A stretch of 64,000 bases of DNA from an uncultured Actinomycetota bacterium (GTDB taxonomy: Bacteria; Actinomycetota; Humimicrobiia; Humimicrobiales; Humimicrobiaceae), in NCBI GenBank assembly GCA_964595565.1, contig CAZQQX010000006.1:2817-66816 (forward strand), in the 5' to 3' direction. The notes under the pieces are model-generated. The model was not told the DNA's origin. It ran no database searches and was given only the letters and a program-made list of their open reading frames with translations. Positions 33,654-60,693 of this stretch are shown here, piece by piece; the stretch's first letter is position 1, and every line of letters begins with the position of its first letter. The position numbers and the translations under genes are program-made.

Positions 33654-33699
33654 ATCTTAATTCACCCTTGAATTTAATCCTGAAGTTATATTTTTAAAC

Positions 33700-34533: not shown

Positions 34534-34577
34534 ATTGACCTCTCCCTGACCAATCTTATCCGGCTATTGTTTTTACT

Positions 34578-35603: not shown

Positions 35604-35660
35604 TCTTAATCTCCCCGCTATTTTTTATATTGTTATTTATATATATTGTTATTTTTTAGT

Positions 35661-40185: not shown

Positions 40186-40222
40186 TTATTATCCCCGTAT
40201 TAACTCATTTTTATTATTTAAA

Positions 40223-41863: not shown

Positions 41864-41874
41864 AAAAATACCCG

Positions 41875-43287: not shown

Positions 43288-43318
43288 TTAAAACCTCACC
43301 TTACCTTTAATCAGGATA

Positions 43319-43717
43319 CTAGCTTCTGGAAATTACAATTACCCCGATCGTTATTACAATTGCTCCTATCCAGCGCACAGGATTAACATCCTCTTTCAAT
43401 ATAAATTTTGAAAGAACAAGCACCATTACATATGTAAAACCAATAAATGGATAAGCAAAGCTCAAATCCACTACAGATATTACTATAAGCCATATAGCAG
43501 CAGAAATTACATATAAAAACAGGCCGGTTAAAATCAGGGGGCTTTTTATCACCCCCAGAAATAATTGCTTTAAAAAATCAAACCCTTCAATATTGACTAT
43601 TCCGATACGATTTATCCCTATTTTTAATAGTAATTGTCCCCCGACGGCTATGGAAATACTCAGCAGTATTAGAAGTATAGAACCTGTTAAACTCAAATGC
43701 CCGCTCCTTTTAATCAT
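43319..43717 (-). CDS. small 4-TM EamA/SMR-like membrane protein (putative lipid-linked sugar flippase subunit)
   Basis: 132 aa, four predicted TM helices, DMT-superfamily half-size architecture, embedded in a GT cluster. Confidence 0.5.
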   Translation of the reverse strand: MIKRSGHLSLTGSILLILLSISIAVGGQLLLKIGINRIGIVNIEGFDFLKQLFLGVIKSPLILTGLFLYVISAAIWLIVISVVDLSFAYPFIGFTYVMVLVLSKFILKEDVNPVRWIGAIVITIGVIVISRS

Positions 43718-43772
43718 AATTTTAAGTATTTATTCTTATTAAACCCGCTTTTAGAAAAATCACCAGTTAAAA

Positions 43773-46094
43773 TTATATTTTCTTTACAAGATAATATCTA
43801 TTGGAAACTGAAAGCCCGATTATCCTGTCAATATTCTCAAAATCCCGCAACAGGACTTCCAGTTTCTGGTCAATGTCTATAACCGTTCCCGATTTATTTC
43901 TGGGTTTAAATCCCCCCAGAATTTCTCTCAGGCTGCTGATATTATAACCCAGATTTTTAACTTCTTCATAAAGAGTCCTGAAAATATTAAAGTATATAAG
44001 TAAGAGCCTCTCACGGTTTTTACGATTTAGTTCATTAATTTCCCTGTTTATCTGTAGCTGGATATTATTATTAATGGCTTTAATTGATTCATTGTAGCTC
44101 TTTCTTAAATTCTCAAAATACATACTGGTAAGAAGATACATATATCTTCTTAGCTTTCCTTTTATGGTTTTATCTTCCGTAAGCTCCTCTGAACCCAGAA
44201 TATCCAGCCGGCTCAAAAGTTTCAATTCATCAAAGTTTTCCTTATTTAATTTTATTTCAAAAAGTTCAAATAATTCATTTTCTCCATATACCTCGTCCGT
44301 CTTATTACCACCGACAAATACCGGATTCTTTTCAAACTTATCCCATATTCCTTTTTCCATGATTTCAAATCCTGCATTTTTAAATATAAATTCAATGGTA
44401 AAATCATCAATCCTTGAACCTGTTCTATCTTCCCTGCTTCCCTCACCCAGAAGTTTATAAATTCCTCTCTTTTCTGGCATGGAAAAAAATAACAGGCCTT
44501 CTTTTTTTAATTTTGAAGCCAGCACATTTGTCAGGTCATAGAAAAATTTTGGAGTAATTTTTAGAAAAGCGTTATTTAAAATAATTCCATCAAACTTTGT
44601 TCTCTGGGTTATTTTAGATTTCAAAATCCCGACTTTATCCAGGCCCGAATATTCATCTTCATCATCAGATAAAACAAAGTCACCGTCCACTTCAAGATTA
44701 AAAATTTTACCCACATCTTTTTTATTTATAATATCTTCGTCCCTGTATTTATTAGAAGTTATTTTTAAAACATTCGCGCAACCCTCAAAATTCTTCTTTA
44801 TAATTCGCGAAATCTTACTATTCTGTAAATCTATCATCTCAACTATTTTTTTCTTATCCAGTGAATAATAAGAATTAACACAATATTTAACCAGTGGTTC
44901 AGTTACATTTTCCCAGTAAAACCGGGGAGCAATCCTATTTAAATTTTTACTATAAATTTCTTTTAAGCTTTTATTGGTAACCACACTTTCTATTACTCTG
45001 GCAAGCTGGTGCGTATCCTCATAACTTACCACCTCACCAATATTCTCGCTCTTTACAATTCGTGCAATAGAATCACCCTCGGTGGTTATTACAGGAAGCC
45101 TCGCCCATATGTAATCAATGACCCTGGTCCTGTAGGAAAATTCCGTTTCAATCCTGTCACTATGAATGGATAATCCCGCATCCGAATCCAGCAGAACAGC
45201 CTGCCTCAGGTCATACGGGGTCCATTCATTAAAAAATATATTTTTATCATATAAATCCAGCTCTTTTGCCAGATTTATAGCTTCCACACACTTTTTCATC
45301 CGGGGAAGCTTGGGGTCAGGGTGATTTACCCCCATAAACACCAGCTTTATATCTTTCCTGTTTCTTGTAATTTCCCATATTGCTTTTATCGCTGTGGTAG
45401 GGTCAAGCCAGTTCCATATTCCACCTCCCCATAAAACTAACTTATCTTCTTCACTAACGTCAGGTACAATATCCCTTATGGAAAAATTATTGCGCCGGGG
45501 CGGTTCGGAAGGTATGCCGGAAGGTACTATATCTATCAAATTTCTTAAAGTATTGTCGGAGTCATAATTGTATGGATTGATCCTGCCCATAGCATTCAAC
45601 ATTCCTACCCAGTAATCCCTCTGTTTTTCACTTGCACAGATAAAAAAATCTCCAATGGTAAGCTGGAGCTTTAATATATTTAAATTATTCTTATCAATCC
45701 TGAGTCTTTCTACCATATCACTTTCCCTGAACATCTCCAGGCTCTCAAGATTAAAGGGATTATAAAGGTCTACAATAATCTTTCCCTTAAAGTTTTTCAG
45801 GAAAGGAAAATAATAAAGGATATGCCCCTGTATTAATATAATTTCAGAATTCTCAATGCTTCTCTGCAGGCTCTTATAGCTATTTAATTTATACTGCCTG
45901 GTTCTAAATCCTTCGATATCAATATCTACTCTGTTGGGAGTAAGTAAAGTAACATCAAGATAATTGGATAGAATCTTTGCAAATTCATAGAAACGTATGC
46001 CGGGCCCGGCCATTTTTTTACCAATTACATCATAGCTTATGATACATATTCTTGATCGATTTTTCTTGCCAGGTTCAACAACTTCTTTCTCCAT
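43773..46094 (-). CDS. multidomain protein: GT4-like glycosyltransferase fused to a methyltransferase-like domain and a C-terminal coiled coil
   Basis: The N-terminal approximately 400 aa carries a GT-B retaining motif (ETEFSYRTRVIDYIWARLPVITTEGD). The middle region FDGIILNNAFLKI...GLLFFS resembles class-I SAM-MTase motifs. The tail is heptad-rich. Confidence 0.6.
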   Translation of the reverse strand: MEKEVVEPGKKNRSRICIISYDVIGKKMAGPGIRFYEFAKILSNYLDVTLLTPNRVDIDIEGFRTRQYKLNSYKSLQRSIENSEIILIQGHILYYFPFLKNFKGKIIVDLYNPFNLESLEMFRESDMVERLRIDKNNLNILKLQLTIGDFFICASEKQRDYWVGMLNAMGRINPYNYDSDNTLRNLIDIVPSGIPSEPPRRNNFSIRDIVPDVSEEDKLVLWGGGIWNWLDPTTAIKAIWEITRNRKDIKLVFMGVNHPDPKLPRMKKCVEAINLAKELDLYDKNIFFNEWTPYDLRQAVLLDSDAGLSIHSDRIETEFSYRTRVIDYIWARLPVITTEGDSIARIVKSENIGEVVSYEDTHQLARVIESVVTNKSLKEIYSKNLNRIAPRFYWENVTEPLVKYCVNSYYSLDKKKIVEMIDLQNSKISRIIKKNFEGCANVLKITSNKYRDEDIINKKDVGKIFNLEVDGDFVLSDDEDEYSGLDKVGILKSKITQRTKFDGIILNNAFLKITPKFFYDLTNVLASKLKKEGLLFFSMPEKRGIYKLLGEGSREDRTGSRIDDFTIEFIFKNAGFEIMEKGIWDKFEKNPVFVGGNKTDEVYGENELFELFEIKLNKENFDELKLLSRLDILGSEELTEDKTIKGKLRRYMYLLTSMYFENLRKSYNESIKAINNNIQLQINREINELNRKNRERLLLIYFNIFRTLYEEVKNLGYNISSLREILGGFKPRNKSGTVIDIDQKLEVLLRDFENIDRIIGLSVSNRYYLVKKI

Positions 46095-46179
46095 TATTTC
46101 TCCTCTGCCGCTTTAAAAATTATCCAAAAGCCTTTTTACGTTAAAAACTCCAGGTTATTTCTTTATTTCAAGATTGCAA

Positions 46180-47226
46180 TCATTTTAACTCTAATTTATT
46201 TAAGATTAAATGATTTTTTAATTTAATTATCAAATTACAGGGTAGAAACAGAAAATTTATAAAATAAGCATAAAATAAAGGCAGAAACTGGTCAACTGTT
46301 GACTCTTTCTTTAACCATCTCAGCTCGGCTCTAAAAAAAACTTTTAAAAATGTCAAAAAATCCATATTGATTATTGCACATCTGATTCTGTTTTTATGGT
46401 AAAACCTGTAGAAATTTCTGCTGAATTTTTTTACTGAAGCTCCTTCAAAATGCCGGGCAACAGAATCGGGGTTTACTACAACTCGCCTTTTAATTTTTTT
46501 AAGTTTAAGACAATAATCAAGTTCCTCAAAATAAGCAGGGCGATACCCGGCATCAAACCCGCCCAGATTACTGAATAACCTGAAATCCGTAACAAAAAAA
46601 GCTCCGGTAACATAATCTACATCTTTTATTCTATCTTCACGGTACAGCTCGCCTTTCCCATTTTCAGTCTTCCCTGTTTCATTCTTAATAACAGAATAAT
46701 CTTTTCCGGAATTTATATGATAGGTAATGAAATTATCTCGTATTCTCCCTCCATAATGCTGGATGGTGACACTGTTATAATCAAGAATGAGTCCTCCTGC
46801 AGCTCCTATCCTGACTGACCGGGATTGTCCCCTGTTTATTTTTTCATTTACCGCTTTATAAAAAGAAACCATTTTCTTTAAAGAGCCCCTGTTAATATAG
46901 ATATCCGGATTTAATAAAATTAAAAACTCCGGCCCTCTGCCGGTATTTTCCTTTTTTGCTTTTATGAAATTAAAAAACGCATGATTAACCGCACCTGCAA
47001 ATCCGATATTTTTCCTGAGTGCAATTAGTTTGAAATTACCGGCATCTAACCCGGGATACATATTCCTGAATTCTCTTATTTTTGTAACTGTTTCATCTTT
47101 AGAAGCATTGTCGGCTACAATCAGAAACCACTCTGTATAATCCTGGGCAATTATTGAATGAAGGCATTTTTCAATAAAATTCTCACTGTTATAAGTAACA
47201 ATTATTATCAGGCTTTTATAATTCAT
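46180..47226 (-). CDS. family-2 glycosyltransferase
   Basis: IIIVTYNSENFIEKCLHSIIAQDY...VADNASKDETV. Confidence 0.8.
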   Translation of the reverse strand: MNYKSLIIIVTYNSENFIEKCLHSIIAQDYTEWFLIVADNASKDETVTKIREFRNMYPGLDAGNFKLIALRKNIGFAGAVNHAFFNFIKAKKENTGRGPEFLILLNPDIYINRGSLKKMVSFYKAVNEKINRGQSRSVRIGAAGGLILDYNSVTIQHYGGRIRDNFITYHINSGKDYSVIKNETGKTENGKGELYREDRIKDVDYVTGAFFVTDFRLFSNLGGFDAGYRPAYFEELDYCLKLKKIKRRVVVNPDSVARHFEGASVKKFSRNFYRFYHKNRIRCAIINMDFLTFLKVFFRAELRWLKKESTVDQFLPLFYAYFINFLFLPCNLIIKLKNHLILNKLELK

Positions 47227-47302
47227 AACGAAAAAATTAATAACAGAAATATTTTGAATACTTGCATCTTTTTAAATATAGCATCCGTGCTTGCTTAAAT
47301 AT

Positions 47303-48877
47303 TCAGTGAAATATTCTCCTTTTAGCAACTTTAAAATAACCATATATTTTATAAATCAGATTCTTGCTGACGATTCCTTCAAGCTCGGATATTCTCCTGT
47401 CCCTTTCTTCTATCATTTGCTTCTGCCGGAGAACTATCTCATCAATATTCCTCAGGGCTTCTTCTCTGTTTAGAAATAATTTCCTTTCCTTCCCTTTATC
47501 CGGGGAAAATACAGGGTTTCTAACCCATTCTCTCAATCTTAAGGTAGTCCTAGTGAAATTAAAATTTTTCAATGCATAAATTTTTCCCGCAGCTGCAGTT
47601 TTTTCCACCTCACTGCGATGTGCTGCCATGTAAATTAATTTATCGCTTAATTCATTATAATCATAAGGTTTAAATGTATAACCAATTTCTTCTTTTTCTA
47701 TAATATCTGTCAATTCACACACATTTGAAGACAGCACGCACAGACCGGCTCTGAACCAATCCATAATACGGTTTTTACTGCCCAGCCTGACTTCATAAAT
47801 ATCTTTATCAATGTTTATACCGGCATCAGCTTCAAGGTAGTAATTCGGGACATCTTCTCCGGGTACCCATCCTTTCATTATAAATCTATCTTTATAAGAG
47901 CTTTCATTTATCATGGAAAGAAAATGAGGATAAGTTTTCAGGTCCTGTTCGGGAATCTCGCCTCCAGTTGATACAAATTTAATATCAGGATTTCTTTTCA
48001 TGGCAATTATCAGTCCTTTAAACAGGGTATCAACATCTGTCCAGGTGTTATATCCACCGGTCCAGAGAACCACGAAATCCCCTTCTTTTATGCCATATTT
48101 TCCCCTGATTACTTTTCTGGTATGTTTATACCCCGTTTCAGGGATACCACATGGAATCACATCTGTAAAATCATAACCGGCGGTATAGCGGTTAAGCCTG
48201 CCCGCGGCTCCCAGCTCTCCTATTAAAGCATACTTCTGTCTTGAAGATACACAGGAAAAACCATCCGCCGCGGATATAATATTATACTCACTGTTCCAGT
48301 AATGGAAAAGACACTCATCACTGCCGTCCATACAGGCGCGCGCCTGTGCTTCGGCCATTACATGGCCAAACAAATCAGCCCGAAACGGTATATCTTTATT
48401 AGAATAACTGATTAGTTTGGACAGAATATATGAAGGATAAAAAGTACATCCAATAGCACAGTCAGGTTCGAATTCATTAAATATCCGGGACATAATTTCA
48501 ACATTCTCAAAATCCTCTTTTCTCAATATGTTGTACTCAAAGCTATATTCAGGACTGCCCTTTATCCCACTATCAACACTGACAGAATTACCGGCATACG
48601 CTTTCCTGTCCCCCATGCCTCCGGAGTTGCTGCTTTTAAAATAACCGGAATTCTTTTTATTTACCGGGCCACCTTCACTATAAACAAAATTTTTCTTATG
48701 CTCTGACTTGTAACCATCAGGATATGCTGAAGGAACAGCATAATTACATACACAAATTTTATGGCCCTCCTCTAACAGTGGCAGCAAAAACTGCCATGTT
48801 CTTATACCGGTTCCATATACCTTCCTGTCATTTTCAAATGGAAGGGGGCTCATGCCTGCTATAAATATTCTGCTCAT
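47303..48877 (-). CDS. GT-B (GT4-like) glycosyltransferase with C-terminal coiled-coil tail
   Basis: Two Rossmann-like halves and a heptad-rich C-terminus; weaker signature than the other GT4 genes. Confidence 0.55.
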   Translation of the reverse strand: MSRIFIAGMSPLPFENDRKVYGTGIRTWQFLLPLLEEGHKICVCNYAVPSAYPDGYKSEHKKNFVYSEGGPVNKKNSGYFKSSNSGGMGDRKAYAGNSVSVDSGIKGSPEYSFEYNILRKEDFENVEIMSRIFNEFEPDCAIGCTFYPSYILSKLISYSNKDIPFRADLFGHVMAEAQARACMDGSDECLFHYWNSEYNIISAADGFSCVSSRQKYALIGELGAAGRLNRYTAGYDFTDVIPCGIPETGYKHTRKVIRGKYGIKEGDFVVLWTGGYNTWTDVDTLFKGLIIAMKRNPDIKFVSTGGEIPEQDLKTYPHFLSMINESSYKDRFIMKGWVPGEDVPNYYLEADAGINIDKDIYEVRLGSKNRIMDWFRAGLCVLSSNVCELTDIIEKEEIGYTFKPYDYNELSDKLIYMAAHRSEVEKTAAAGKIYALKNFNFTRTTLRLREWVRNPVFSPDKGKERKLFLNREEALRNIDEIVLRQKQMIEERDRRISELEGIVSKNLIYKIYGYFKVAKRRIFH

Positions 48878-49060
48878 ATTAAAAAATTAAGAATATATTA
48901 CTTTTTGGTTTATTTTTGCTTTAATTATAATAATTTATCCCGGACTTATCACTTTACTGTTTTTATTTTTTAAAGATTTCTTAATTATAATTGTACTAAT
49001 TAAAAATTTATACTACCATAACAAAAACAATAAAATTATTGTAAACAGCCTGAATCCTAT

Positions 49061-51070
49061 ATGAGATTTATAATAATAATACTTCTAATTATTTTTTTAT
49101 CAATAAGCACCCTTTTAAGCATCGCCGTAATCAGTACAACAAAAGACGCCGAAAGCCGGGAAACCACTGCAGAAGGGCCGCTATCAGCAAAACCAAAAGA
49201 TAAAAATAAATTACCTGTCTCAAGGGTAGAAACAATAAATGATATACAAAAATTTTTTATTACTAATCGCGAATACATAAGTAAAGATATCAGTGACACC
49301 CCGGCCGGGGATACTGCTGATGGCCCTGAAACTCCGGATGATAAGGATGACAGTTCTTTAGATTCTGCAAACCAGGATGCAGAAGTAGCTGATAATAAAC
49401 AAAACGAAGATAGAGAAAATACGGATGAAGAAGAAACTACGGAAGAAGAGGAAGAAAACAGAGAAGAGATAAAAGCCGGTACCATAAAATTTTTTCTGGA
49501 TGGAGATATGGAAAACGGCATATACCTCGGGGAAACAACTTCAAACCTTGAATCTGCGGAAGCATTACAGCTGTACGGTGAGGATTTTATAAATACAGGT
49601 TTTAAATTTAACATTAAAAATGACAGTAATCTTAATCTTGAAGCCGGCTCTAACCACTATATTTATATTTACTTTTACACCCGGCAGTCAGAATGGGGCT
49701 ACACAAGACAACAGGTAAGTTTATCCGGAGAAGAAAAATGTGAGAAAAAAATTACCATATTTGTAGAAAAACCGGAAGATAAGATTATAACCTCCAGCCT
49801 AAAGATAATTAAAGGATGGGCTGTTGACCTTAGAAACAAAGAAAACCCCGGAATATCAAACATTGAAATCTACCTTGATGGACCGGAGAGTTATGGAAAA
49901 TTTATCGGGAACGCTGAATATGGAACCCCTAGAGAGGACGTTGCCGGCTATCTTGAAAATTCAAACTACTTAAATAGCGGTTATACATTTGAAAATCTGA
50001 TTGACCTTGAGCCCGGTTCCACCCACACTATATTCATTTATGCCTTTAGCTCCGTGGACAATTCGTTTAATTATGAAACAAGAGATATTTACTTATCCGG
50101 GATAAGAGAAGAAAAAGCAATAATTAATGCCAGGATTGACACACAAAAGTTCAATGATGAGAACATTATTGAAATAACCGGACTGGCAATTGATAAAAAT
50201 GTCCTTGAACAGTACCTTGAAGAAAAACGAAAGGCCGTGGAAGAGTCTTCAACAGATACCGGCCGGTACAATACCAAAAAAATAATATTTAATTCCAATA
50301 GAGATGGTAATGAAAATATATACAGTATAAATATTGACGGTACAGGACTCACCCGCCTGACCGGCAGCACTGGCAGCGACCTGTATCCGGAAGTATCGCC
50401 TGATGGAGAAAAAATTGCCTATACTGCTGATATAGGCGGGGTCTGGCAGATTATGGTTATGGACTGGAATGGTGATAATAAAAAGCAAATTACCACGGGC
50501 AACCATAGATGTGCCTATCCTTCCTGGTCTTATGACGGAAAATATATATATTTTGAGATATATAGTGATGGAGACTGGGAAATATATAGAATTAAAAGCG
50601 ACGGAACAGAGCAAAAAAGGCTTACCTTTAACCGCGACTCCCATGACTGGCACCCAACCGGGCATCCTTCTGAATATATGGTTATCTACGAATCAGGAAC
50701 TACCGGACATGAAAATATTTATGTAATGAATCACGACGGCTCCGGAAAAAGAAAAATATGTACTGATGGGCCAAGAAGAAGGGTCCCGGATGTATCACCG
50801 GACGGAAGTAAAATAACTTATATGAGATATTCTGATAGATACGCTGATATCTGGATTATGGATTATACCGGCCAGAATGAAACCAGGTTAAACAGCAACC
50901 CTGAAGAGGACGGCCACCCATCTTTTTCACCTGATGGGAAATATATAATTTATGAAGAAAGAAAAGGCTCCCGCGAAGATTTAATTTTAATAGATCTTGT
51001 CACTGGAGAAAAAACCAATCTGACTAATTCTTCATATATTGATAAAGATGGCAGTTTCCTTTACCGATAA
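49061..51070 (+). CDS. signal-anchored protein: acidic linker, two copies of an approximately 100-aa unassigned domain, and a C-terminal PD40/TolB-like beta-propeller
   Basis: N-terminal hydrophobic anchor, a D/E-rich segment, two internal repeats (IKFFLDGDMENGIYLGE... / IEIYLDGPESYGKFIGNAEYG...) and TolB-type PD40 repeats (NSNRDGNENIYSINIDG...SPDGEKIAYT... WSYDGKYIYFE). Confidence 0.7.
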   Translation: MRFIIIILLIIFLSISTLLSIAVISTTKDAESRETTAEGPLSAKPKDKNKLPVSRVETINDIQKFFITNREYISKDISDTPAGDTADGPETPDDKDDSSLDSANQDAEVADNKQNEDRENTDEEETTEEEEENREEIKAGTIKFFLDGDMENGIYLGETTSNLESAEALQLYGEDFINTGFKFNIKNDSNLNLEAGSNHYIYIYFYTRQSEWGYTRQQVSLSGEEKCEKKITIFVEKPEDKIITSSLKIIKGWAVDLRNKENPGISNIEIYLDGPESYGKFIGNAEYGTPREDVAGYLENSNYLNSGYTFENLIDLEPGSTHTIFIYAFSSVDNSFNYETRDIYLSGIREEKAIINARIDTQKFNDENIIEITGLAIDKNVLEQYLEEKRKAVEESSTDTGRYNTKKIIFNSNRDGNENIYSINIDGTGLTRLTGSTGSDLYPEVSPDGEKIAYTADIGGVWQIMVMDWNGDNKKQITTGNHRCAYPSWSYDGKYIYFEIYSDGDWEIYRIKSDGTEQKRLTFNRDSHDWHPTGHPSEYMVIYESGTTGHENIYVMNHDGSGKRKICTDGPRRRVPDVSPDGSKITYMRYSDRYADIWIMDYTGQNETRLNSNPEEDGHPSFSPDGKYIIYEERKGSREDLILIDLVTGEKTNLTNSSYIDKDGSFLYR

Positions 51071-51119
51071 TAACTACCTTTTGCAGTTTAATATATTTTC
51101 CGGGTCCACTGTACTGCAT

Positions 51120-51581
51120 TTAATCGGTAACCTGATGCCTGAACCTTTTGCTTGAAGCTCTGAGTTTTAATCTAACCGATGTACCCATGGAAATACCGAG
51201 CCACAGGCCCCAGACAGTTTCCCTGGAAAAGAAATAAAAAGCAAGCTCTGAAATAGTAAGACTGGAGTTAAACAGTTCAGTTACTACTGTATTTACCAGA
51301 CCGGTTTTATATAGCAATAGCGCAATAGCAGGTATACAGCCTGAAATCAAAAATGTTTTTATGTCAAAATAGTTCCTATTTACTATCGGCTTCATACTGA
51401 GAATTATCAGTAATCCAATCATAAACCCAAGAATAAGAACAATAATGAGCCTCAAAAAACTTAAAAAACCGGCCGGCAGGCTGTAAGCTGCCAGTGCGGC
51501 GGTAATATTATCAAAATATGCAAAAGCGGTATAATAGAGAATTATATTTATAAAACTGAATATGATAAGAAAAATTCTCAT
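51120..51581 (-). CDS. 4-TM membrane protein, unassigned family (paralogue of 53533..54063)
   Basis: 153 aa, four hydrophobic helices, convergent with the PD40 gene; about 45% identical to 53533..54063. Confidence 0.5.
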   Translation of the reverse strand: MRIFLIIFSFINIILYYTAFAYFDNITAALAAYSLPAGFLSFLRLIIVLILGFMIGLLIILSMKPIVNRNYFDIKTFLISGCIPAIALLLYKTGLVNTVVTELFNSSLTISELAFYFFSRETVWGLWLGISMGTSVRLKLRASSKRFRHQVTD

Positions 51582-51812
51582 TTTTTTATCCGCTGTCTTC
51601 TTTCTATTTATATCATTTTTTTTAAAATGACTGATAAGCAGATGTTAACTTAAAAAAATACTAATTTCAATTAATATTGTATTCTGTTATACTTTAAAAC
51701 TTGAAAAAATATTAAATGCATTTATAGTTTATAATTATTATCAGTTTATTTAACTTAATCTTAATGTCCAAATCCTATAATCTGTAATATAGATAAAAAG
51801 GTATAAAAAAAA

Positions 51813-53579
51813 ATGAGAACAGTAACTACAATTATTATAGTTTTGCTCCTGGTAGCTGTTATATTCCTCGGGTTTATAGTCTTAAAATATTCCGGAACAG
51901 GAACTCCTGCCGAAGAAGAAACTGCCGGGCCTGAAACAGGCGAACCCATAGTTGAAGAAGAGGAGCCAGAGCCTGTAGTTGAAGAAGAACCGGTTCAGGA
52001 AGTGAAAGAGGATGAAATCGCAGTAATCGAAATATATCTTGATGGTGACAGGAATAATGGCATACTGCTGGGAGAAGCAGAATATGGTATGGCCTCCCCG
52101 GAAGCTTATAATATCTATGGCGGGGAATTCTCAGAAAGCGGTTTTCTCCTGGCCGAAAAAAACAGAGCATACACCTTTGAGCCCGGCTCTACCCACTACC
52201 TTTATATCTATGTTCTTATACCGGAATATGGATGGAATTATACCCGCCAGAAGGTTAGCATCCCGGGCAGCGAAGAGACAGACGAAAATATCAGGTTATC
52301 TATAGATGACCCTTCCCACAATGAAACAATAAAAGAAGCTGATAAATCAAATATTAAAATTTCAGGCTGGTCAGTTGATGTCAGCCAGCAAAGTGACCCC
52401 GGTATTGACCGTATTGAAATATATCTAAACGGGCCTAAAGAATTCGGGAAGCCTGCCGGTGAAGTGGACTATGGAATTGAAAGACAGGATGTAGCCGGCG
52501 CTCTTGGAAACGCCGGTTATACCAGTTCCGGATATTTATTAAATTTTGACGGTAGTAATCTTGAAGCCGACAGCGAAAACACCCTGTATATCTACTCTTT
52601 CTCTACTTCAGGAACATATAACCTGGGCTTAAGAAATATTGTAATAGAAGGTGAAAAGAAGGAATCAATAGCCCTAATTTCAGCACAGGCTAACCTGAGC
52701 AATGAATCCATAGAGATAAGCGGCTGGGCAATAAATAAAGACCACATTACCGGAGGCAGACCGAGAGACCCCGATACAGAATACTCAACCAGAAAGATAG
52801 TATTTGCTTCCAGCAAAAATGGAAACGAGGATATATTCAGCATGAACATAGATGGTACCGAACTTACGCAGCTGACAGATTATTCCGGAAAAGACAATTA
52901 CCCTGCTGTTTCACCCGATGGTAAAAAAATTGCCTACACTTCAGATATCAATGGTGTCTGGCAGATAGTAGTTATGAACTGGGATGGAACCGAAAAGGAG
53001 CAGATTACCTACAATCCGTGGAGAAGCGGGTATCCTGCCTGGTCCTTTGATGGAAGATATATTTTCTTTGAAGCATACATAGAGGGCGACTATGAAATAT
53101 ACAGGATGAACAGTGATGGAAGCAATATGAAGAGAATTACATTCAATCCAAATATCCCGGACTGGCATCCTTACGGTCATCCTTTCCAGTACAGAGTCAT
53201 TTATGAATCAGGGACGTCAAGGAACGAAAAAATATATATGATGGATTATGACGGTACTAATATTAAACAGCTATCAGACGCAGACATGCGGCAGAGGGTC
53301 CCTGCAATTTCTATTGATGGAGAAACTATCGTTTTTAGTGACAATGAATCCGTTTATACTATAAATATCAATGGAGAAAATTTACAAAAAATCAGCGGGA
53401 ACCTCTCAAACAGCAGACACCCTGACATATCTCCGGATAATAAATATATAACCTTCGAGGGCAATGTTGACGGCCAGCTTGAAATATTTATAGTCAATGC
53501 CGATGGTTCAAACCTAAAGAGACTTACCAGTATTACTGGAAGTGATTATGACCCTGTTTTTCTGTATCAGGCTCCCTAG
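51813..53579 (+). CDS. paralogue of 49061..51070: signal-anchored repeat-domain / PD40 beta-propeller protein
   Basis: Same architecture: TM anchor, an E/P-rich linker, two IEIYL(D/N)G repeats and PD40 repeats; about 60% identical to gene 49061 in the propeller region. Confidence 0.7.
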   Translation: MRTVTTIIIVLLLVAVIFLGFIVLKYSGTGTPAEEETAGPETGEPIVEEEEPEPVVEEEPVQEVKEDEIAVIEIYLDGDRNNGILLGEAEYGMASPEAYNIYGGEFSESGFLLAEKNRAYTFEPGSTHYLYIYVLIPEYGWNYTRQKVSIPGSEETDENIRLSIDDPSHNETIKEADKSNIKISGWSVDVSQQSDPGIDRIEIYLNGPKEFGKPAGEVDYGIERQDVAGALGNAGYTSSGYLLNFDGSNLEADSENTLYIYSFSTSGTYNLGLRNIVIEGEKKESIALISAQANLSNESIEISGWAINKDHITGGRPRDPDTEYSTRKIVFASSKNGNEDIFSMNIDGTELTQLTDYSGKDNYPAVSPDGKKIAYTSDINGVWQIVVMNWDGTEKEQITYNPWRSGYPAWSFDGRYIFFEAYIEGDYEIYRMNSDGSNMKRITFNPNIPDWHPYGHPFQYRVIYESGTSRNEKIYMMDYDGTNIKQLSDADMRQRVPAISIDGETIVFSDNESVYTININGENLQKISGNLSNSRHPDISPDNKYITFEGNVDGQLEIFIVNADGSNLKRLTSITGSDYDPVFLYQAP

Positions 53580-54063
53580 CAAGTGATGGAAGCTCTACTT
53601 TTTCTTTTCCTTCAATTGAAACATGTTTGTATTTTCTTCCGGGAAAACTGAATCGGATTGATGAACCTATAGAAAAGCCCAGCCATATGGACCATATAGT
53701 CTGCCTTGAGAAAAGATAAAATACAAGCTCACTCAATCGTTCACTGGAGTTAAAAAATTTATTAATAATAAAGCTGGTAATTGTACCTTCAGATAGCACC
53801 ATACAGATAAAAGGGAAAAAACCGACTATCACCAGGTTCTTAAAACTAAAAAGGCTTCTTTTTATTTTTAATTTTAATACAAGCATCACTATTACACCTA
53901 TACAGAACCCGACAATTAACAGGACCGCCAGCTTAATATAATTTGCTGCTATTGCTGATATATCTAATCCTTCAAGAATCTCCAGAATCTTATCAAAATA
54001 AGAATAAATAAAAACATAAAAAACAGCATTAATAAAAGAAAAAACTATTAAAAAAACTCTCAA
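53533..54063 (-). CDS. 4-TM membrane protein, paralogue of 51120..51581
   Basis: MRVFLIVFSFINAVFY... / ...FNSSERLSELVFYLFSRQTIWSIWLGFSIGSSIRF align with the other copy; the 3' end overlaps the convergent PD40 gene by about 47 nt. Confidence 0.5.
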   Translation of the reverse strand: MRVFLIVFSFINAVFYVFIYSYFDKILEILEGLDISAIAANYIKLAVLLIVGFCIGVIVMLVLKLKIKRSLFSFKNLVIVGFFPFICMVLSEGTITSFIINKFFNSSERLSELVFYLFSRQTIWSIWLGFSIGSSIRFSFPGRKYKHVSIEGKEKVELPSLAREPDTEKQGHNHFQ

Positions 54064-54173
54064 AATCTATCACCTTCCTACCTGGTCTTGTTCTTCCAAT
54101 ATATTAATTATACTCCGATTATTTTAATAAGGTCGCATATCTTCTACAGCCAGACTATCTCCTGTCCTATAAA

Positions 54174-56012
54174 TCAAAGTCTCTGTCCGATGCTGCCGAG
54201 ATACTGGGAAACATAACTATAGACTGTATGCGCCACAACCGAAGCACCTGCTGAACTGTAGTGCATGCCATCATTTAGATAGCCACCGGGATTCTGAGAA
54301 AGCGGAGTTGTAACATCTATAACCACTGCACCGTGCTTTGCAGCAATCTGCCTTATTGTGTCATTATATTTAGCATAATTTTCTTTTTCCGGCCAGTTCA
54401 GTGGCCCGATAAGGTTAACAAATACCCTTGCGCCAAGACTTTTTGCTTTTACAATCAGGCCCTCCATGCTAACCGAGAATCCGGAATAACGGGGACCCAC
54501 ATCATTGGTTCCATAGGCAATTATAACTATATCCGGATTATGCACAGCAACGGTGCTTTCAAATCTCGCATTCCCCTCACGGGTTAACTCGCCACTCTTC
54601 GCACTGGCAATGGTATTATACTCTGCATAGGGATAATTAGCCTCCAGAAGCTGGTCAAATGTCTGCACCCAGTTTGATTTAGCTATCAGTGAATCGCCCA
54701 TGGCTACAATAGTCACACTGGCATTCCCCCTTACATTCAGGCTTTTAGGCGGCAGCCCAACAACCGCATTGCTGCTTTCAATTTTAAAATGAGTGGTTAT
54801 TGTACCGCCTGAATTAGCCAGATTTTCATTCACCATTATCCTAAAAGTAATCTCTTTTTCCTCTTCTACGCCCAGGTTCTCAAGGTCCCAGATAAGCCCC
54901 CTTATATCATCGCTCCACCTTATACCCTCCGCGGTACCGGACCGGCTGACGTAAGTAGCCCCTTCCGGCGTGGGGCAGATAACACTATAATTTTCTTCTT
55001 TCTTCATACCGGTGTTTCTGACAATAATTTTTACACTTATAGTCTCTCCCGGGTATAGATTGCCTCCATTTGTATCGTATATATAGTTTTCCGATGTAGT
55101 TAAATCAGAAAACAGGCTCAGTTTTTCTTCCACTTTTTTTTCTATTACAATTGACCCGTATTTTAAAATACTTTCACCGGTTATAACTTCTTCGCCCATT
55201 AAGTCTTCTTTCACCCTGACCTTAAAGGAAAGAACCCTTTTTGTATTCACTTTAAGGTTGTCAATTTCCCATAATACGCTGTTATTGTTGTATTCCCCCT
55301 GGCCGGTAATAGAATCTTTGATTATGTCCGTGTATTCTGATATAGCACTTTTTATTTCAACACTGGATGCACTCATATCGCCATCATTTTTCACTGTTAA
55401 ATCATACCTCAGAACATCACCCAGCATGATGACCCCGCCATTCTCATCTACAGCTTTTACACTGAAGCTACTCAAATCAGGGCTACTTTCAACTTCGGCG
55501 GTCAGAACGGGGCTTATGGTATTATTAAACGTCTCTATCCCTATAAGGTAATTAAAATTCACCTTATCCAACATGATTACAGTACCATCATCCAGCGGGC
55601 TAATTACTTCCACCACAAAACACAGAGTACCTCTCTCGTTCTTCTTAACCTCTCCAATGTTAAAACCCAGTTTTTTGCCGTCCCCGGCAATGTTTAAAAC
55701 GTCACTGCGGTCCGATGACACAAAGGAAGTATGTTCCGGTAAACCAACTTCTATAACCAGTTTGCTTACATTCCTGTTACCCGTATTTTTGTAATTTACT
55801 GCATAAGTAATCCTGTCCCCCGGTTTTATATTATCCCCTGTATCACTGTATACATAATTAAAATTTTCATCATCAAAATTGGGTTCTGTCAGATAGAATT
55901 TAAAATAATAAATTAAAAAAGCAGCTGCAGCTATGCCCAGAGAACCGGCCACAATAAAAATCCACTTTTTATTACTTTTTATATAATCCAGTATTTTTTT
56001 AATTATCTTCAT
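54174..56012 (-). CDS. signal-anchored surface protein with DUF11-type repeat domains and a C-terminal SGNH/GDSL hydrolase domain
   Basis: GDRITYAVNYKNTGNRNVSKLVIEVGLPEHTSFVSS DUF11-like repeats. The C-terminus has VTIVAMGDSL (GDS block I) ... IVIIAYGTNDV (block III). The ATG at 56012 is preferred over the upstream TTG at 56084. Confidence 0.65.
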   Translation of the reverse strand: MKIIKKILDYIKSNKKWIFIVAGSLGIAAAAFLIYYFKFYLTEPNFDDENFNYVYSDTGDNIKPGDRITYAVNYKNTGNRNVSKLVIEVGLPEHTSFVSSDRSDVLNIAGDGKKLGFNIGEVKKNERGTLCFVVEVISPLDDGTVIMLDKVNFNYLIGIETFNNTISPVLTAEVESSPDLSSFSVKAVDENGGVIMLGDVLRYDLTVKNDGDMSASSVEIKSAISEYTDIIKDSITGQGEYNNNSVLWEIDNLKVNTKRVLSFKVRVKEDLMGEEVITGESILKYGSIVIEKKVEEKLSLFSDLTTSENYIYDTNGGNLYPGETISVKIIVRNTGMKKEENYSVICPTPEGATYVSRSGTAEGIRWSDDIRGLIWDLENLGVEEEKEITFRIMVNENLANSGGTITTHFKIESSNAVVGLPPKSLNVRGNASVTIVAMGDSLIAKSNWVQTFDQLLEANYPYAEYNTIASAKSGELTREGNARFESTVAVHNPDIVIIAYGTNDVGPRYSGFSVSMEGLIVKAKSLGARVFVNLIGPLNWPEKENYAKYNDTIRQIAAKHGAVVIDVTTPLSQNPGGYLNDGMHYSSAGASVVAHTVYSYVSQYLGSIGQRL

Positions 56013-56115: not shown

Positions 56116-57717
56116 TTACCTTATCTCTATTTCAATATCATCACAATTAATATAATTATTTTTGTAAGTCGCCCTGAATTTTACAACAGACCGTCCGGAA
56201 TCGGTGCCCCTGACTTTAACCATTAAATTAATCTGACCATTACTATCTATAATATATGAATCGCTTACCCACATATATACACCCTCACTTAAACCCGGAT
56301 ATTGTTTTACGTATCCTTCAGGGCTGACTCCGGTCAGCTCAACGTTATCCGGAAGCTCAAGTTCCAGTGAAGTGATCCCGGCCCCATCTTCACCGGTATT
56401 GCCTATAATAAATTCTATGATAAATTCTTCTCCCTCTTTTTTTATCTTATCACCAGCTTCATAGCTAATTTCAATACTTCTATCCAGATTTAAATAATTA
56501 ACATACTGTTCGGGAGAAATCAGGCTGTTAAACTCCACTCTCTTCATATTAAAGAGGTCAATTGTCTCTGTATCCTCTGCCCCGCCGGCATGCCTTAACG
56601 CACCTCTGTAGCCGGCTTCCACAAATAAAGGCGTTTTATCAGGATTATAATTTCCCTTTGGTAGCGCAACAAATAAAACTTCATTTCCCAGATGGGATTC
56701 AATATCCTCTTTTGATCGGGTAAGTTCATATAAAATTGTCTCATCGTAAGCAATTCCCAGCCTGACATGATTTACTGTATGGGATTGAAACTCGCAACCA
56801 TATTCATACATTTCTTTAATCTCGGGCCATATAAGTATCGGGCGTATGGGCCTGTCCGCACTGGCTTCTTTCTCAAAATATGCATTTGTTTTTCTATCAG
56901 CTTCAGTATCCCCTATTGCGCCGGTTACCAGAAATACAGTCATCCTGTACCCGTACTTTTTAAGAATGGGGAACCCATTGGTATAAACATCCTGAAACCC
57001 GTCATCGGATGTTATAATTACCGGTTTTTCAGGCAGCGACCTGCCGAAATCTATGTAATCTAAAAGCTCCTTCAACGTAATAGTCTCGTAACCATACTCT
57101 TTTAATACGCCGCACAGTTTGTCAAAGTGGCCGGTATAAAGCTCTATCGGCTCTTCAATATGATCCTCTATGGCATGCATGCCTATTATGGGAATAAAAA
57201 CTCCATCAAATTGTCTTTCACCGTAAACCAGCATTTTACAATCAGGACCTATAAAAGAGTCTACTTCATCTGAAGATATCTCCAGCCCGACCTCAGCCCG
57301 GGTGTCCTCATTTATATCATCTATTAAAGTCAGACCGGTTACAAAATTACTTTCTTCCCCCGCTCCAAGAACATCTATATTCCATGATGTCCGCCCGATG
57401 CCTGGTTCAAACAGGTCGTGAGTTATAAGATTAACTTCCACATTTTTTGCTTCCGCACCGCCGCTATTTACCACACTTATATTTACCTTTATATCTTCAC
57501 CTCCATATGTATTTCCGCCATTTGCATCAATTAGTTCTATATAAGAACCGGAAAATGATGGCAATGGCCCCTCTCCGGACGAACTGGCGTCACTATCACC
57601 GCTGCTTATAACCTGTTCAAACCCAGAACAGCCGGTAAAAATTACCGGAAAAATTATTATAAAAGCAAATAAAACTTTTATATTATTCTTTTTAATGAGT
57701 TTTCTCACTGCAAACAT
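56116..57717 (-). CDS. lipoprotein with a NodB-type polysaccharide deacetylase domain and a C-terminal DUF11-like beta-sandwich domain
   Basis: Lipobox VIFTGCSG. PIITSDDGFQDVYTNGFPILKKYGYRMTVFLV is the NodB motif 1/2 region. The C-terminal approximately 105 aa are shared with the gene at 57823. Confidence 0.75.
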   Translation of the reverse strand: MFAVRKLIKKNNIKVLFAFIIIFPVIFTGCSGFEQVISSGDSDASSSGEGPLPSFSGSYIELIDANGGNTYGGEDIKVNISVVNSGGAEAKNVEVNLITHDLFEPGIGRTSWNIDVLGAGEESNFVTGLTLIDDINEDTRAEVGLEISSDEVDSFIGPDCKMLVYGERQFDGVFIPIIGMHAIEDHIEEPIELYTGHFDKLCGVLKEYGYETITLKELLDYIDFGRSLPEKPVIITSDDGFQDVYTNGFPILKKYGYRMTVFLVTGAIGDTEADRKTNAYFEKEASADRPIRPILIWPEIKEMYEYGCEFQSHTVNHVRLGIAYDETILYELTRSKEDIESHLGNEVLFVALPKGNYNPDKTPLFVEAGYRGALRHAGGAEDTETIDLFNMKRVEFNSLISPEQYVNYLNLDRSIEISYEAGDKIKKEGEEFIIEFIIGNTGEDGAGITSLELELPDNVELTGVSPEGYVKQYPGLSEGVYMWVSDSYIIDSNGQINLMVKVRGTDSGRSVVKFRATYKNNYINCDDIEIEIR

Positions 57718-57822: not shown

Positions 57823-59715
57823 TTAATCTTTTATCTCTATTCCTAAACTGTCACAGTCAACGTAAAACCCGCCGGTTGTCAGTCTAAATTTTATAAATGA
57901 CTCACCGGGCGCCATTCCTTTTAGTTTTACAATCAAGTTTATCTCTTCCCCGCCCTCTATGACATATGAATCACTTACCCACATATATATACCCTGGCTC
58001 AGGCCGGGGTCCTGGCTGATATACCCTCCGGGGGAAGTTTCTATGAATTCAATATTTTCAGGAAGCTCAAGCTCAAATGATGTAATCTTAATTCTTTCTT
58101 TATTCTTATTCCTGACAATATATTCAATGGTGAATTCCTCCCCGAACCTTCTGGTATAACTATCGCTAAAGTAGCTAATTTCAGGAATAGACGCTGCAGG
58201 TTCAGTAACCCTGAACAGTCTTAACCATTCGTCATACCTGCTCCATAAATAACTTTTCCCCACCTGTTCGGCATTAAATAATTTTTTTATTACCTCTTCA
58301 TTGCCCACATAATATACTGTAATACCATCTTCAAGAGCTTCCATCATATTGCTTGCCGTATATTCCGGCACCTTATGAGATATATATTTTATGTTTTTGT
58401 CTCCATACTCATATTTGTCCACAAACATCCCGATATTTGTTGATTTAGCCAGGGCATACACCCTGGAATTACTTTCCATATTCTTAAACGCTTCATCCCA
58501 GAATTTATAAACGTAAGAAACCTCCGAATGGTCAAGCGAAGGATAATTTTCTATTATCAGGCCGGCCGGTATAAAAAGAAAAAACAATAATATGATAGTG
58601 ACCAGAAAATATTTTAAGAATTTATCAATCCCCAGAACCTTTCTTCCCATTAATGACTTAATAAACAGCAGAATCACCCCATCCAGTATAAACAGCAACC
58701 CGAAAGCAATATAAAAAGAAAATACAATCATTGAATACAGTAAATAATTTCTGAGTGCATGCCCTGCATATAATGGAGGAAAAACAAAGTTTACAATCAC
58801 CAGCAAAAATGTGCACAGGGCAAACTTTACATTTTTTTTGACCAGAATGATAAATCCTATAAGCGCTATGATAAGAAGCAGGATACCATAACTTTCATAA
58901 AACATACCAAGGTAATCTTTAATTACCTTTAATATTAATGAAATGCTCTTGTCCCCAAAACTTCCTCCATGGACTTCCCCTGTTACACCCCTTCCGGTTA
59001 TATAATAGAAAAATTTTAAAGGGCCGGTTACTTCCCCGTAACCCTGGAGCGACCTTATGGGAAGATACAGATATGATAAAAGAGGCAGAATAAAATATAA
59101 TATGCTGATTATAATTGCCTTTGCGCTTTTAAAAATCCCCGGATTCACAATAATAACATATAAAATAATGACCGGGACCAGGAAAAAAACAAGAGGGTGG
59201 TTGGTTAAACTTAACCCCAGGCAGAAAGCAAAAAAATAAAGATACTTTCTGGTTTTATTTTCATTATAGGTAATAGCCGAAAAAAACAATAAAGTCATAA
59301 AAAAAGTCTGTAATGTATCAAATTCCAGCCTGTTTGCCACTTCCCAGAAAGGCACGGCAAAAGCAAATATCATTGAACTTATAAAGCTTACGAACACATT
59401 TTTTACCAGTTTATTAATTGATAGGAATAAAAATAAAATGGTAAGTGCGCCGAAGATTGCTGAAAAAAGATTGAGCCTGTAAGCTATATCTCCAACCGGC
59501 AGTAAGGTAAAAAGCTTTTCCAGCATGGAAAAAACCGGATATCCGGTAGGAACCATAAGACTCATTTCGGTAACCTGAAGAGCGTACCATGCAGTATCCC
59601 CGCCTATTAGTTTACGTTCCAGAGTCATAAGATAAATAACCAGGGGAACAGCAAAAGAAAGAATTGATAATATAACTGCCTGTTTTCCTGTTATGAATGC
59701 TTTAACCTTCTCCAA
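57823..59715 (-). CDS. polytopic GT-C-fold membrane glycosyltransferase-like protein (DUF2723/TMEM260- and ArnT/PMT-like) with a C-terminal DUF11-like extracytoplasmic domain
   Basis: More than 10 predicted TM helices. An early loop GGDTAWYALQV...VPTGYPVF resembles the DUF2723 HPPGYPL region. The soluble C-terminal domain is about 55% identical to the C-terminus of the deacetylase. Confidence 0.55.
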   Translation of the reverse strand: MEKVKAFITGKQAVILSILSFAVPLVIYLMTLERKLIGGDTAWYALQVTEMSLMVPTGYPVFSMLEKLFTLLPVGDIAYRLNLFSAIFGALTILFLFLSINKLVKNVFVSFISSMIFAFAVPFWEVANRLEFDTLQTFFMTLLFFSAITYNENKTRKYLYFFAFCLGLSLTNHPLVFFLVPVIILYVIIVNPGIFKSAKAIIISILYFILPLLSYLYLPIRSLQGYGEVTGPLKFFYYITGRGVTGEVHGGSFGDKSISLILKVIKDYLGMFYESYGILLLIIALIGFIILVKKNVKFALCTFLLVIVNFVFPPLYAGHALRNYLLYSMIVFSFYIAFGLLFILDGVILLFIKSLMGRKVLGIDKFLKYFLVTIILLFFLFIPAGLIIENYPSLDHSEVSYVYKFWDEAFKNMESNSRVYALAKSTNIGMFVDKYEYGDKNIKYISHKVPEYTASNMMEALEDGITVYYVGNEEVIKKLFNAEQVGKSYLWSRYDEWLRLFRVTEPAASIPEISYFSDSYTRRFGEEFTIEYIVRNKNKERIKITSFELELPENIEFIETSPGGYISQDPGLSQGIYMWVSDSYVIEGGEEINLIVKLKGMAPGESFIKFRLTTGGFYVDCDSLGIEIKD

Positions 59716-59762: not shown

Positions 59763-60101
59763 TTACAGATTAAATATTATAACTCCGGCAATAACCAGGA
59801 TATTGCCCGCAATTCTTAACCTGTCAATATCTTCTCTGAGAATACACCATGAAAATAACATTATAAAAAAGTAGCTCAGCGCCGTAAAGGAATAAAAATT
59901 TGAAAAATCAATCACTCTCATAGTGATTATGGAAAGAACCGGAACAAGCAAAAATAAAAATATACTTATTAAAAGATATTTATTCTTAAAATTGCAGGTA
60001 AAGGGCTTCCTGAAATCTACCTTTTTTGCTCCTATCTTGAGTATAACCTGGGCCAGGGCAACCAGAAATTGAGTTACAACCGCCAAAAAAATATAAAGCA
60101 T
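59763..60101 (-). CDS. small 4-TM EamA/SMR-type protein (ArnE/ArnF-like flippase subunit)
   Basis: 112 aa half-size DMT protein immediately downstream of a second one: the paired arrangement typical of ArnE/ArnF. Confidence 0.6.
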   Translation of the reverse strand: MLYIFLAVVTQFLVALAQVILKIGAKKVDFRKPFTCNFKNKYLLISIFLFLLVPVLSIITMRVIDFSNFYSFTALSYFFIMLFSWCILREDIDRLRIAGNILVIAGVIIFNL

Positions 60102-60104
60102 AAT

Positions 60105-60527
60105 TTATACCCCTTCCAGCTTCTTACTGGACATAGTTATAATAAAAACTCCTGCTACTATAACAGCCGAACCGATAATTTTTTTTAAAGTAACGGGCTC
60201 GCCAAATAAAATTTTGCCCAGGAACAAAGAAAAAAAGTAATTTAAGCTCAGGAGCGGATATATAAAAGAGAGCTTAAACTTCCTGTGCAGGATAAACCAT
60301 AACACAAATTTAAGGCCGTAAGTCAGAGACATCACAGACAGCCAGAAGGCAAAAACCCTTGAGAGTTCAAGATTCATGCCTATATATTTTCCCGCAATTA
60401 TACTCAGTAGATTAATGCTGATGGCAAGAATAACTATAAGAATATAAAAAATTTTTTTATCGGTATCCCTAAATTTCATTTTTGATTTTTCCCCTGCGAA
60501 AAGGGCCAAACTAATATTTTGAAACAC
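60105..60527 (-). CDS. small 4-TM EamA/SMR-type protein (ArnE/ArnF-like flippase subunit)
   Basis: 140 aa, four TM helices; 3 nt from the partner gene. Confidence 0.6.
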   Translation of the reverse strand: MFQNISLALFAGEKSKMKFRDTDKKIFYILIVILAISINLLSIIAGKYIGMNLELSRVFAFWLSVMSLTYGLKFVLWFILHRKFKLSFIYPLLSLNYFFSLFLGKILFGEPVTLKKIIGSAVIVAGVFIITMSSKKLEGV

Positions 60528-60693
60528 ATTTTATACTAAAACTAATGAAATTATAAGTTTTTATAATTTTTTTCAAATTAAAGGAAAAATATAAAAACAT
60601 CTTAAAGCCTACTATTTTTTATGTTATAGTAATAAAATTATTTTAGTTAAGTTAAAGTCTGTCAAAATATCAGGTAATTTTAAAAAAGGAAAT

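Follow-up and report, generated by a model that had tools for sequence, protein, structure and literature searches.

A duplicated gene pair in a surface-glycan locus of uncultured Actinomycetota encodes a membrane-anchored protein with a TolB-like propeller and an orphan four-span membrane protein

What could a large, membrane-anchored surface protein do together with a small membrane protein of no recognized family, when the two genes face each other tail to tail and the arrangement occurs twice in a row within a cluster of surface-glycan genes? The question is raised by a 64-kb stretch of DNA (hereafter the window) from an uncultured bacterium of the Humimicrobiaceae (Actinomycetota; contig CAZQQX010000006.1). 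An earlier reading made from the letters of this DNA alone (the sequence-only reading) had described two neighboring copies of a two-gene cassette there, and all four of its open reading frames are present at the coordinates it gave. We call the large genes A and B and the small genes a and b:

49061-51070, plus strand: gene A, 669 amino acids (aa); membrane anchor, stalk, two immunoglobulin (Ig)-like domains and a PD40 beta-propeller; the long-stalk paralogue
51120-51581, minus strand: gene a, a 153-aa orphan protein with four transmembrane spans (4-TM), cognate to A
51813-53579, plus strand: gene B, 588 aa, the short-stalk paralogue of A
53533-54063, minus strand: gene b, a 176-aa orphan 4-TM protein with a TTG start, cognate to B
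48878-49060: AT-rich divergent intergenic region between a GT4-type glycosyltransferase (GT) gene (47303-48877, minus strand) and gene A; presumed bidirectional promoter region
51582-51812: AT-rich divergent intergenic region between a and B, with promoter-like sites that are not statistically enriched
53533-53579: 47-nt overlap of the 3' ends of b and B

Each cassette pairs a non-catalytic, membrane-tethered ectoprotein with an orphan 4-TM protein; the module holds a fixed slot in a surface-glycan locus and was duplicated once. We propose, with a probability of roughly 40%, that the ectoprotein is a non-catalytic binding platform tethered to the membrane that, with its cognate membrane partner, serves the extracytoplasmic glycan steps of the locus. 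The large proteins consist of known parts, PD40 and Big_7-like Ig domains, which are ordinary surface modules, and the small proteins make up an orphan family.

Alignment upholds the paralogy of the two pairs that had been claimed from the sequence. A and B share 42% identity over 535 aligned positions (E 7e-135); for a and b the figure is 38% over 149 positions (E 1e-38). The geometry is also the same in both cassettes, as had been stated: each large gene converges with its small gene, 49 nt separate the stop codons of A and a, and the second pair overlaps at its 3' ends. At the nucleotide level, the two cassettes can still be aligned over 474 bp of the propeller (66%) and 96 bp of the small gene (71%) but nowhere else, and the duplication is therefore old rather than a recent tandem repeat. 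No extra copies of the large or the small family were found in the 64-kb window.

To place the pair in its wider genomic setting, fourteen window proteins were mapped by tblastn onto 33 related loci (numbered with an L below), and gene calls were read for several of them. Wherever a locus continues past the small gene, a large propeller gene lies next to it in convergent orientation. About twenty loci have both cassettes and window-like neighbors, in the order LPG-synthase-like, GT2, ArnE/F-like pair, TMEM260-like GT-C, CARDB-deacetylase, DUF11-GDSL esterase, b, B, a, A, GT4, GT2 and a 773-aa GT4-like gene. A single cassette occupies the same slot in divergent lineages (L005/L006, L007, L032 and L034), whose small proteins are 49-56% identical. 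The same GT4 and GT2 genes adjoin it, followed by the GT4-like gene where the locus is long enough, and a deacetylase and a PMT_2-type GT-C are also found beside it where the contig permits. Co-occurrence with the glycan cluster, which the sequence-only reading had put forward as a check, thus takes the form of strict pairing in a fixed slot of a conserved cluster.

Neighbor-joining trees of the large and small proteins are congruent: the A clade mirrors the a clade, B mirrors b, and the single-copy forms are sister to B/b. This congruence indicates a single duplication of the pair as a unit, after which each small protein co-diverged with its neighbor. The trees are midpoint-rooted, and both a loss of A/a in the single-copy lineages and a faster evolution of A/a fit them. 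One locus inside the two-cassette clade, L013, lacks both A and a. A clean deletion is ruled out there, as other genes fill the slot (12431-15752): a 486-aa membrane protein with weak Sulfatase and Acyl_transf_3 matches, which has a weak claim to being LtaS-like, a 463-aa unassigned protein and a 118-aa open reading frame. This position of the cluster is therefore variable. In the single-cassette locus L034, on a 197-kb contig, the propeller gene (10484-11823) is called as fragments of 96 and 327 aa that lack its N-terminal part, and a split also affects the 773-aa GT4-like gene; these split genes could reflect a pseudogene or assembly consensus errors.

The small proteins had been described as 4-TM proteins of unassigned family, and searches of Pfam, NCBIfam, the PDB and Foldseek agree. 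Both a and b are helical, with about four hydrophobic membrane spans. By the positive-inside rule, the distribution of lysine and arginine predicts an N-in/C-in topology, with both termini and the loop at 67-76 on the inner side and the loops at 24-44 and 93-120 on the outer side. Neither protein matches Pfam at E<=1 or NCBIfam at E<=0.1, and a profile of 52 small-protein sequences retrieved nothing from the PDB at E<=10. There is no detectable similarity to GtrA-like, ArnE/ArnF/EamA or other Pfam and NCBIfam membrane families, and kinship with the ArnE/F-like 4-TM proteins of the cluster itself is ruled out by an hhalign probability of <=1%. Single-sequence search puts the family at 106 clusters and profile search at 245, all of which are unnamed or "hypothetical"; none of the 245 contains a Pfam domain, and the few organism labels are Actinomycetota metagenome-assembled genomes (MAGs). 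A pattern scan of one genome per species, covering 185,579 species, located the small protein in 25 genomes, every one an Actinomycetota MAG and several labeled Candidatus Humimicrobiaceae or Hydromicrobium. Additionally, public metagenomes contain a protein (P0019) that is 99% identical to b. Across the 52 sequences, residues G52, G56, G81, P84, Y116, S119, W127, G129, G133, S135, R137 and H147 are invariant, and the most conserved stretch is 104-137, which covers the outer loop and the fourth span (TM4). No acidic or catalytic-looking residue is invariant in both paralogue types in this set, and for this reason we lean weakly towards a structural partner rather than an enzyme.

In the arrangement that we favor, the 4-TM protein would be the membrane partner of the anchored protein, which it could contact through the conserved outer loop and TM4 (residues 104-137) or by packing of its helices against the anchor. 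Several points weigh against this. The putative A-a and B-b interactions rest on adjacency and congruent trees, which are expected for any two linked genes and would follow equally from simple co-inheritance. The genes of a pair converge and so cannot share a transcript, and the small genes lie on the strand of all flanking cluster genes, to whose operon they could belong functionally instead. Furthermore, the AlphaFold2 model of b is poor (predicted local distance difference test score, pLDDT, of 61), and a Foldseek search of the PDB with this low-confidence model gave no fold match, all matches being at E>5.

The arguments from gene order would suit an explanation in which the pairing is inherited linkage only. 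The small genes would then be part of a minus-strand glycan operon, encoding for example an accessory subunit of a transferase or translocase, while the propeller genes would be independent, antisense and simply copied along. A and B are indeed the sole plus-strand genes in about 20 kb. We nevertheless find this explanation unlikely, because the two genes remain neighbors in convergent orientation in relatives with identities as low as about 45-55%, whether these have one cassette or two, whereas other neighbors vary or invert around it (L005, L024, L027, L030 and L034). Moreover, what was duplicated is precisely the two genes together, and L013, which lacks both A and a, points in the same direction.

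Each large protein had been credited with a membrane anchor, an acidic low-complexity linker and a TolB-like PD40 propeller. These three parts are all found, with the resemblance to TolB confined to the propeller:

49061-49144, plus strand: N-terminal hydrophobic signal-anchor of A, residues 1-28; hydropathy peak 3.0
49145-49477, plus strand: acidic low-complexity stalk of A, residues 29-139 (111 aa); 32% D+E, 16% S+T
50258-51067, plus strand: PD40 beta-propeller of A, residues ~400-669, ~270 aa; PD40 88.3 bits in 4 stretches, TIGR02800 164.8 bits
51813-51890, plus strand: N-terminal signal-anchor of B, residues 1-26; hydropathy segment 1-31, peak 3.4
51891-52016, plus strand: acidic E/P/T-rich stalk of B, residues 27-68 (42 aa); 40% D+E, 14% P
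52770-53576, plus strand: PD40 beta-propeller of B, residues ~320-588; PD40 78.6 bits, TIGR02800 157.9 bits

The large proteins are type-II membrane-anchored. Each has a single hydrophobic segment of 28-31 residues at its N-terminus, and this run is long for a cleaved signal peptide, which suggests a signal-anchor instead. In every genome looked at, the A-type protein (660-686 aa) is about 70-100 residues longer than the B-type protein (584-592 aa), and in the window this difference in length is the stalk. At the other end of the proteins, Pfam scores 3-4 PD40 stretches over about 270 aa in both A and B (cutoff 20.9 bits), a length that would suit a propeller of six blades. Neither protein contains a catalytic domain according to Pfam and NCBIfam, where only the PD40, DUF5050 and DPPIV_N propeller models match, and a PDB sequence search with the large proteins' N-terminal region found no match at E<=10. 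The top PDB match of the propeller is 2ymu (E 2.4e-29), a protein of repetitive WD-40 repeats, and designed repeat propellers are likewise near the top. Among natural proteins whose function is known, TolB propellers come closest to the propeller (E ~1e-16), matched over TolB residues ~236-346 only.

Could A and B then be TolB orthologues in a Tol-Pal-type trans-envelope system, with a and b as its inner-membrane components? The best NCBIfam model is the TolB model TIGR02800, and the C-terminal propeller belongs to the same sequence family as that of TolB and is about the same size. However, the scores of 158-165 bits are less than half the equivalog cutoff of 343.15 bits, the match is limited to the propeller, and the N-terminal domain of TolB (TolB_N) is missing from both proteins at E<=1 in Pfam. 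A and B are instead anchored in the membrane by a signal-anchor followed by an acidic stalk, carry two Ig-like domains before the propeller and have an orphan 4-TM partner, which shows no similarity to ExbB/TolQ (Foldseek E 10). No tolQ-, tolR-, tolA- or pal-like gene was found in the window at 29.6-37.2, 38.1-48.9 and 54.2-63.7 kb or in the 20-kb related loci, and the hosts are Actinomycetota. With four of the five defining features against it and the PD40 propeller as the one that is shared, we reject membership in TolB/Tol-Pal (TIGR02800 / PF04052 with PF07676) and regard such a system as practically untenable here. By analogy with TolB, the propeller probably serves as a platform in the envelope to which proteins or peptides bind.

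The same searches touch on proteases. Weak matches to DPPIV_N (E 1.6e-7), Dpp5 and lasso-peptide isopeptidase, together with precomputed Tricorn_N and Tricorn_2nd assignments in orthologues, would fit propeller proteins that gate substrates or bind peptides for a protease system of the S9/DPP-IV or tricorn-like type, and the Big_7-like relatives discussed below often occur on subtilases. All such matches fall on the propeller only, however, and A and B end at the last propeller blade with no hydrolase domain. No conserved peptidase gene lies beside the pair, and we consider a role of this kind very improbable.

Between the stalk and the propeller lies a unit of about 90-105 aa that occurs twice in each large protein:

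49478-49738, plus strand: Ig-like repeat 1 of A, residues 140-226; Big_7-like core without the first two strands
49799-50116, plus strand: Ig-like repeat 2 of A, residues 247-352; complete Big_7-like domain including the GWAVD strand
52017-52277, plus strand: Ig-like repeat 1 of B, residues 69-155; AlphaFold2 strands E6-84
52290-52664, plus strand: Ig-like repeat 2 of B with its leading strand, residues 160-284; AlphaFold2 strands E95-213
52671-52736, plus strand: extra beta-hairpin of B (…IEISGWAINKD), residues 287-308; AlphaFold2 strands E222-230 and E234-243

The two internal copies that the sequence-only reading had noticed are real by Smith-Waterman comparison, with scores about 10 standard deviations above shuffles (0/300 shuffles scored as high); BLASTP self-comparison of the N-terminal regions missed the repeat. 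Repeat 1 of A matches a hidden Markov model of the repeat with an i-Evalue of 6e-37, a circular value in that the model was built from these same sequences.

The repeat had been called unassignable to any known family, a judgment that profile searches and AlphaFold/Foldseek now overturn. A profile made from the four window repeats and searched against 1.84 billion representative proteins matched 1,539 clusters at E<=1e-3, 595 of them at E<=1e-10, and 3-9 copies in tandem are frequent. Of 51 sampled matches, Pfam scores 39 as Big_7 (PF17957, "Bacterial Ig domain"), with a best E of 9e-48. When the profile-matched segments were scanned alone, Big_7 positions 1-70 aligned over about 95 residues, and four of six exceeded the gathering threshold of 24.1 bits. 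The copies in the window fall below this threshold: repeat 2 of B reaches 14.6 bits (E 0.052, model positions 4-43), and the other three have no Big_7 match in Pfam. The family consensus reads GWA.D…V.VY.DG…YG..R.DV…NSG…G.H.L.VYA.

An AlphaFold2 model of B residues 66-315, built from 20 sequences (pLDDT 92.5; predicted template modeling score, pTM, 0.87), is all-beta and consists of two beta-sandwiches with one short helix per unit, which supports an Ig-like beta-sandwich fold for the window repeats. On the strength of transitive homology and fold, rather than of a direct score, we assign the repeat as a divergent, insert-bearing Big_7-type Ig-like domain. It has in common with Big_7, an E-set type beta-sandwich, the sandwich fold, the profile link and a common motif, and it differs in its length (about 95-105 aa compared to a 70-position model) and in an inserted helix (YG..R.DVA). 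Additionally, repeat 1 opens with the IEIYLDG strand, without the two leading strands of repeat 2, and an orphan hairpin follows repeat 2. This hairpin (B 287-308) is confidently modeled and resembles the GWSVD strand of repeat 2 in sequence. It looks like the first two strands of a third Big_7 domain, and it may complete repeat 1 to give a closed two-domain module.

The partner domains of Big_7-like relatives, which include Peptidase_S8, Amidase_3, M23, Glucosaminidase and the NHL and SBBP propellers, are typical of secreted and cell-wall enzymes. The combination with PD40 was rare, seen in 2 of the 51 sampled matches, and these two may be orthologues of A/B. An Ig-like family with an established role had been named as grounds for refutation; the repeat fits this in part, as it does belong to an Ig-like family, but Big_7 is a generic surface module without a specific role. 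In the PDB, the best Foldseek match of the two-domain module is Vibrio cholerae RbmA (E 2e-5), and the template modeling score of 0.33 and identity of about 10% denote generic fold similarity rather than demonstrable homology. RbmA is a non-catalytic scaffold of tandem beta-sandwiches (fibronectin type III) that organizes the exopolysaccharide biofilm matrix, and it offers a functional analogy for a scaffold role. It differs in that it is secreted and has neither a propeller nor a membrane partner.

For the binding platform that we propose, the ectodomain of two Ig-like domains and a propeller would be held at a set height above the membrane, where it could bind or organize the locus's extracytoplasmic enzymes or the polymer. 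The two paralogues, whose main difference is the length of the stalk, may be subfunctionalized by reach, working at two distances from the membrane; the consistently greater length of the A-type proteins suggests as much. The earlier idea of the large proteins as envelope scaffolds is plausible. As for the other earlier suggestion, a dedicated periplasmic complex, the word "periplasmic" is doubtful, given that all carriers found are MAGs of the Actinomycetota, a phylum that is typically monoderm, and the carrier organisms are probably without an outer membrane.

What glycan steps might such a platform serve? The cassette was reported to sit between a block of glycosyltransferases and an Arn-like module, and gene annotation of both sides confirms it. 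The conserved locus is one that makes and modifies a glycan or glycoconjugate of the cell surface. A GT2/GT4 block (38141-48877) of cytoplasmic enzymes lies on one side, and the DUF11-GDSL esterase, the secreted CARDB-deacetylase, the PMT/TMEM260-like GT-C, the ArnE/F-like flippase pair and an ArnC/AglJ-like polyprenyl-phosphate GT2 lie on the other; the similarity scores of these neighbors are all under the equivalog cutoffs. Within 59763-61650, two small EamA-type proteins are ArnF-like (E 1e-4) and ArnE-like (E 1e-10), and the best models of the GT2 (60694-61650) are archaeal AglJ and dolichyl-phosphate hexose transferase, at 125 bits compared to a cutoff of 325. Judging from these similarities, the ArnE/F-like pair, the GT2 and the GT-C would form a polyprenyl-phosphate-sugar glycosylation module. 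Known systems of this kind, namely Gtr/Arn-type modules (polyprenyl-phosphate-sugar GT2, small flippase and GT-C) and TMEM260/PMT, thus resemble the neighbors of the cassette and not the cassette, whose 4-TM protein is unrelated to the ArnE/F-like proteins.

With such a module nearby, A and B might be its acceptor glycoproteins, O-glycosylated on their T/P/E-rich stalks or on the Ig-like domains, and the small protein might be unrelated or accessory. Human TMEM260 O-mannosylates Ig-like IPT domains specifically (PMC10214176), and its acceptor sequon, Px6Px3Px2GGx3T/S, lies in the first two strands of the Ig-like domain (bioRxiv 10.64898/2026.09.21.753134). In the window, the PMT_2/TMEM260-like GT-C, the ArnE/F-like pair and the ArnC/AglJ-like GT2 are located 4-8 kb from the cassette and are syntenic in most relatives, and the stalks contain threonine and proline. 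A regular-expression search found neither the full sequon nor its core in A, B, the DUF11-GDSL esterase or the CARDB-deacetylase, although this argument is weak, as a distant bacterial homologue may use another sequon. Serine and threonine make up only 12-16% of the stalks. Additionally, in L005 and L024 no GT-C was detected within 10 kb, which makes the link common but not strict, and the strictly paired 4-TM protein is left unexplained. We therefore doubt that glycosylation of A and B accounts for the cassette, and note that an acceptor role would be compatible with a binding platform.

Two enzymes of the cluster have a further element in common. The TMEM260/PMT_2-like GT-C (57823-59715, 630 aa) and the CARDB-polysaccharide deacetylase (533 aa) both carry a C-terminal module of about 150 residues (57823-58290 and 56116-56580, both on the minus strand), with 45% identity (E 3e-35) and the motif …ELELP.N.E…PGLS.G.YMWVSDSY…. 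This module has no Pfam match at E<=0.1, and it resembles the DUF11 repeats of the GDSL esterase only marginally (E 0.075). It may be a common binding or docking domain of two extracytoplasmic enzymes. A bolder form of our proposal, which we consider a long shot, is an undescribed envelope complex in which a membrane base carries a TolB-like head of adjustable height that docks the enzymes of the glycan pathway, or holds the nascent polymer, at two distances from the membrane. The docking site in such a complex could be the C-terminal module of the GT-C and the deacetylase. If this were true, it would be a new kind of assembly scaffold for cell-surface glycans.

No published system came to light in which a TolB-type propeller protein has a 4-TM protein as its dedicated partner, and a search of the literature on the host lineage brought up no mention of the locus. 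If the pairing reflects a real complex, it would provide a first handle on how the cell surface is built in an uncultured, deep-branching actinobacterial class (Humimicrobiia-type), and it would be a case of a TolB-type propeller put to use outside Tol-Pal alongside a new membrane partner. The repeat now has a place in the Big_7 Ig-like family as an insert-bearing subtype with more than 1,500 protein clusters, and the orphan 4-TM family, with about 245 clusters and clear invariant residues, could be curated as a new family. The function is one that we infer, and we regard the finding as being of moderate specialist interest.

The overlap of b and B has a consequence for the sequence of b. Its tail, PDTEKQGHNH, is the reverse-strand reading of the conserved last strand of B, SDYDPVFLYQ. 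Overlaps of 47-65 nt, mostly 53, between b and B are present in nearly all two-cassette genomes, and a and A are mostly separated by a gap of 12-49 nt. Because the tail is missing from all a-type proteins and from some b orthologues, it probably represents read-through that is tolerated, with B imposing its conservation. At ~10480 in L003/L023, the b orthologue P0056 stops at 159 aa, while tblastn similarity runs on to query residue 174; compared to other b-type genes, this is either an in-frame stop or a sequencing error. The stop-to-stop value of -53 for b in L003 is an artefact of tblastn reading through this in-frame stop, as the gene call ends earlier.

Scans of 48700-54300 gave 25 promoter sites, compared to 18.8±4.2 in shuffles, and 6 terminators, compared to 4.5±2.1, neither of which is above expectation; the assignment of 48878-49060, where some of the promoter sites lie, as a bidirectional promoter region is accordingly a presumption. 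In the cassette region (48001-54000), GC skew ranges from about -0.08 to +0.03, compared to about -0.2 elsewhere, and only there do GC and AT skew flip sign, which fits A and B as the only sizeable plus-strand genes within a long minus-strand array.

Further along the window, a tryptophan operon (30803-37151, minus strand) encodes TrpE, TrpD, IGPS, PRAI, a TrpB-like protein and TrpA. It lies no more than about 1 kb from the glycosyltransferase block, and another GT2 gene (29590-30492) flanks it on its far side. A tmRNA gene with the tag peptide ANDNELALAA is located at 9747-10099 on the minus strand.

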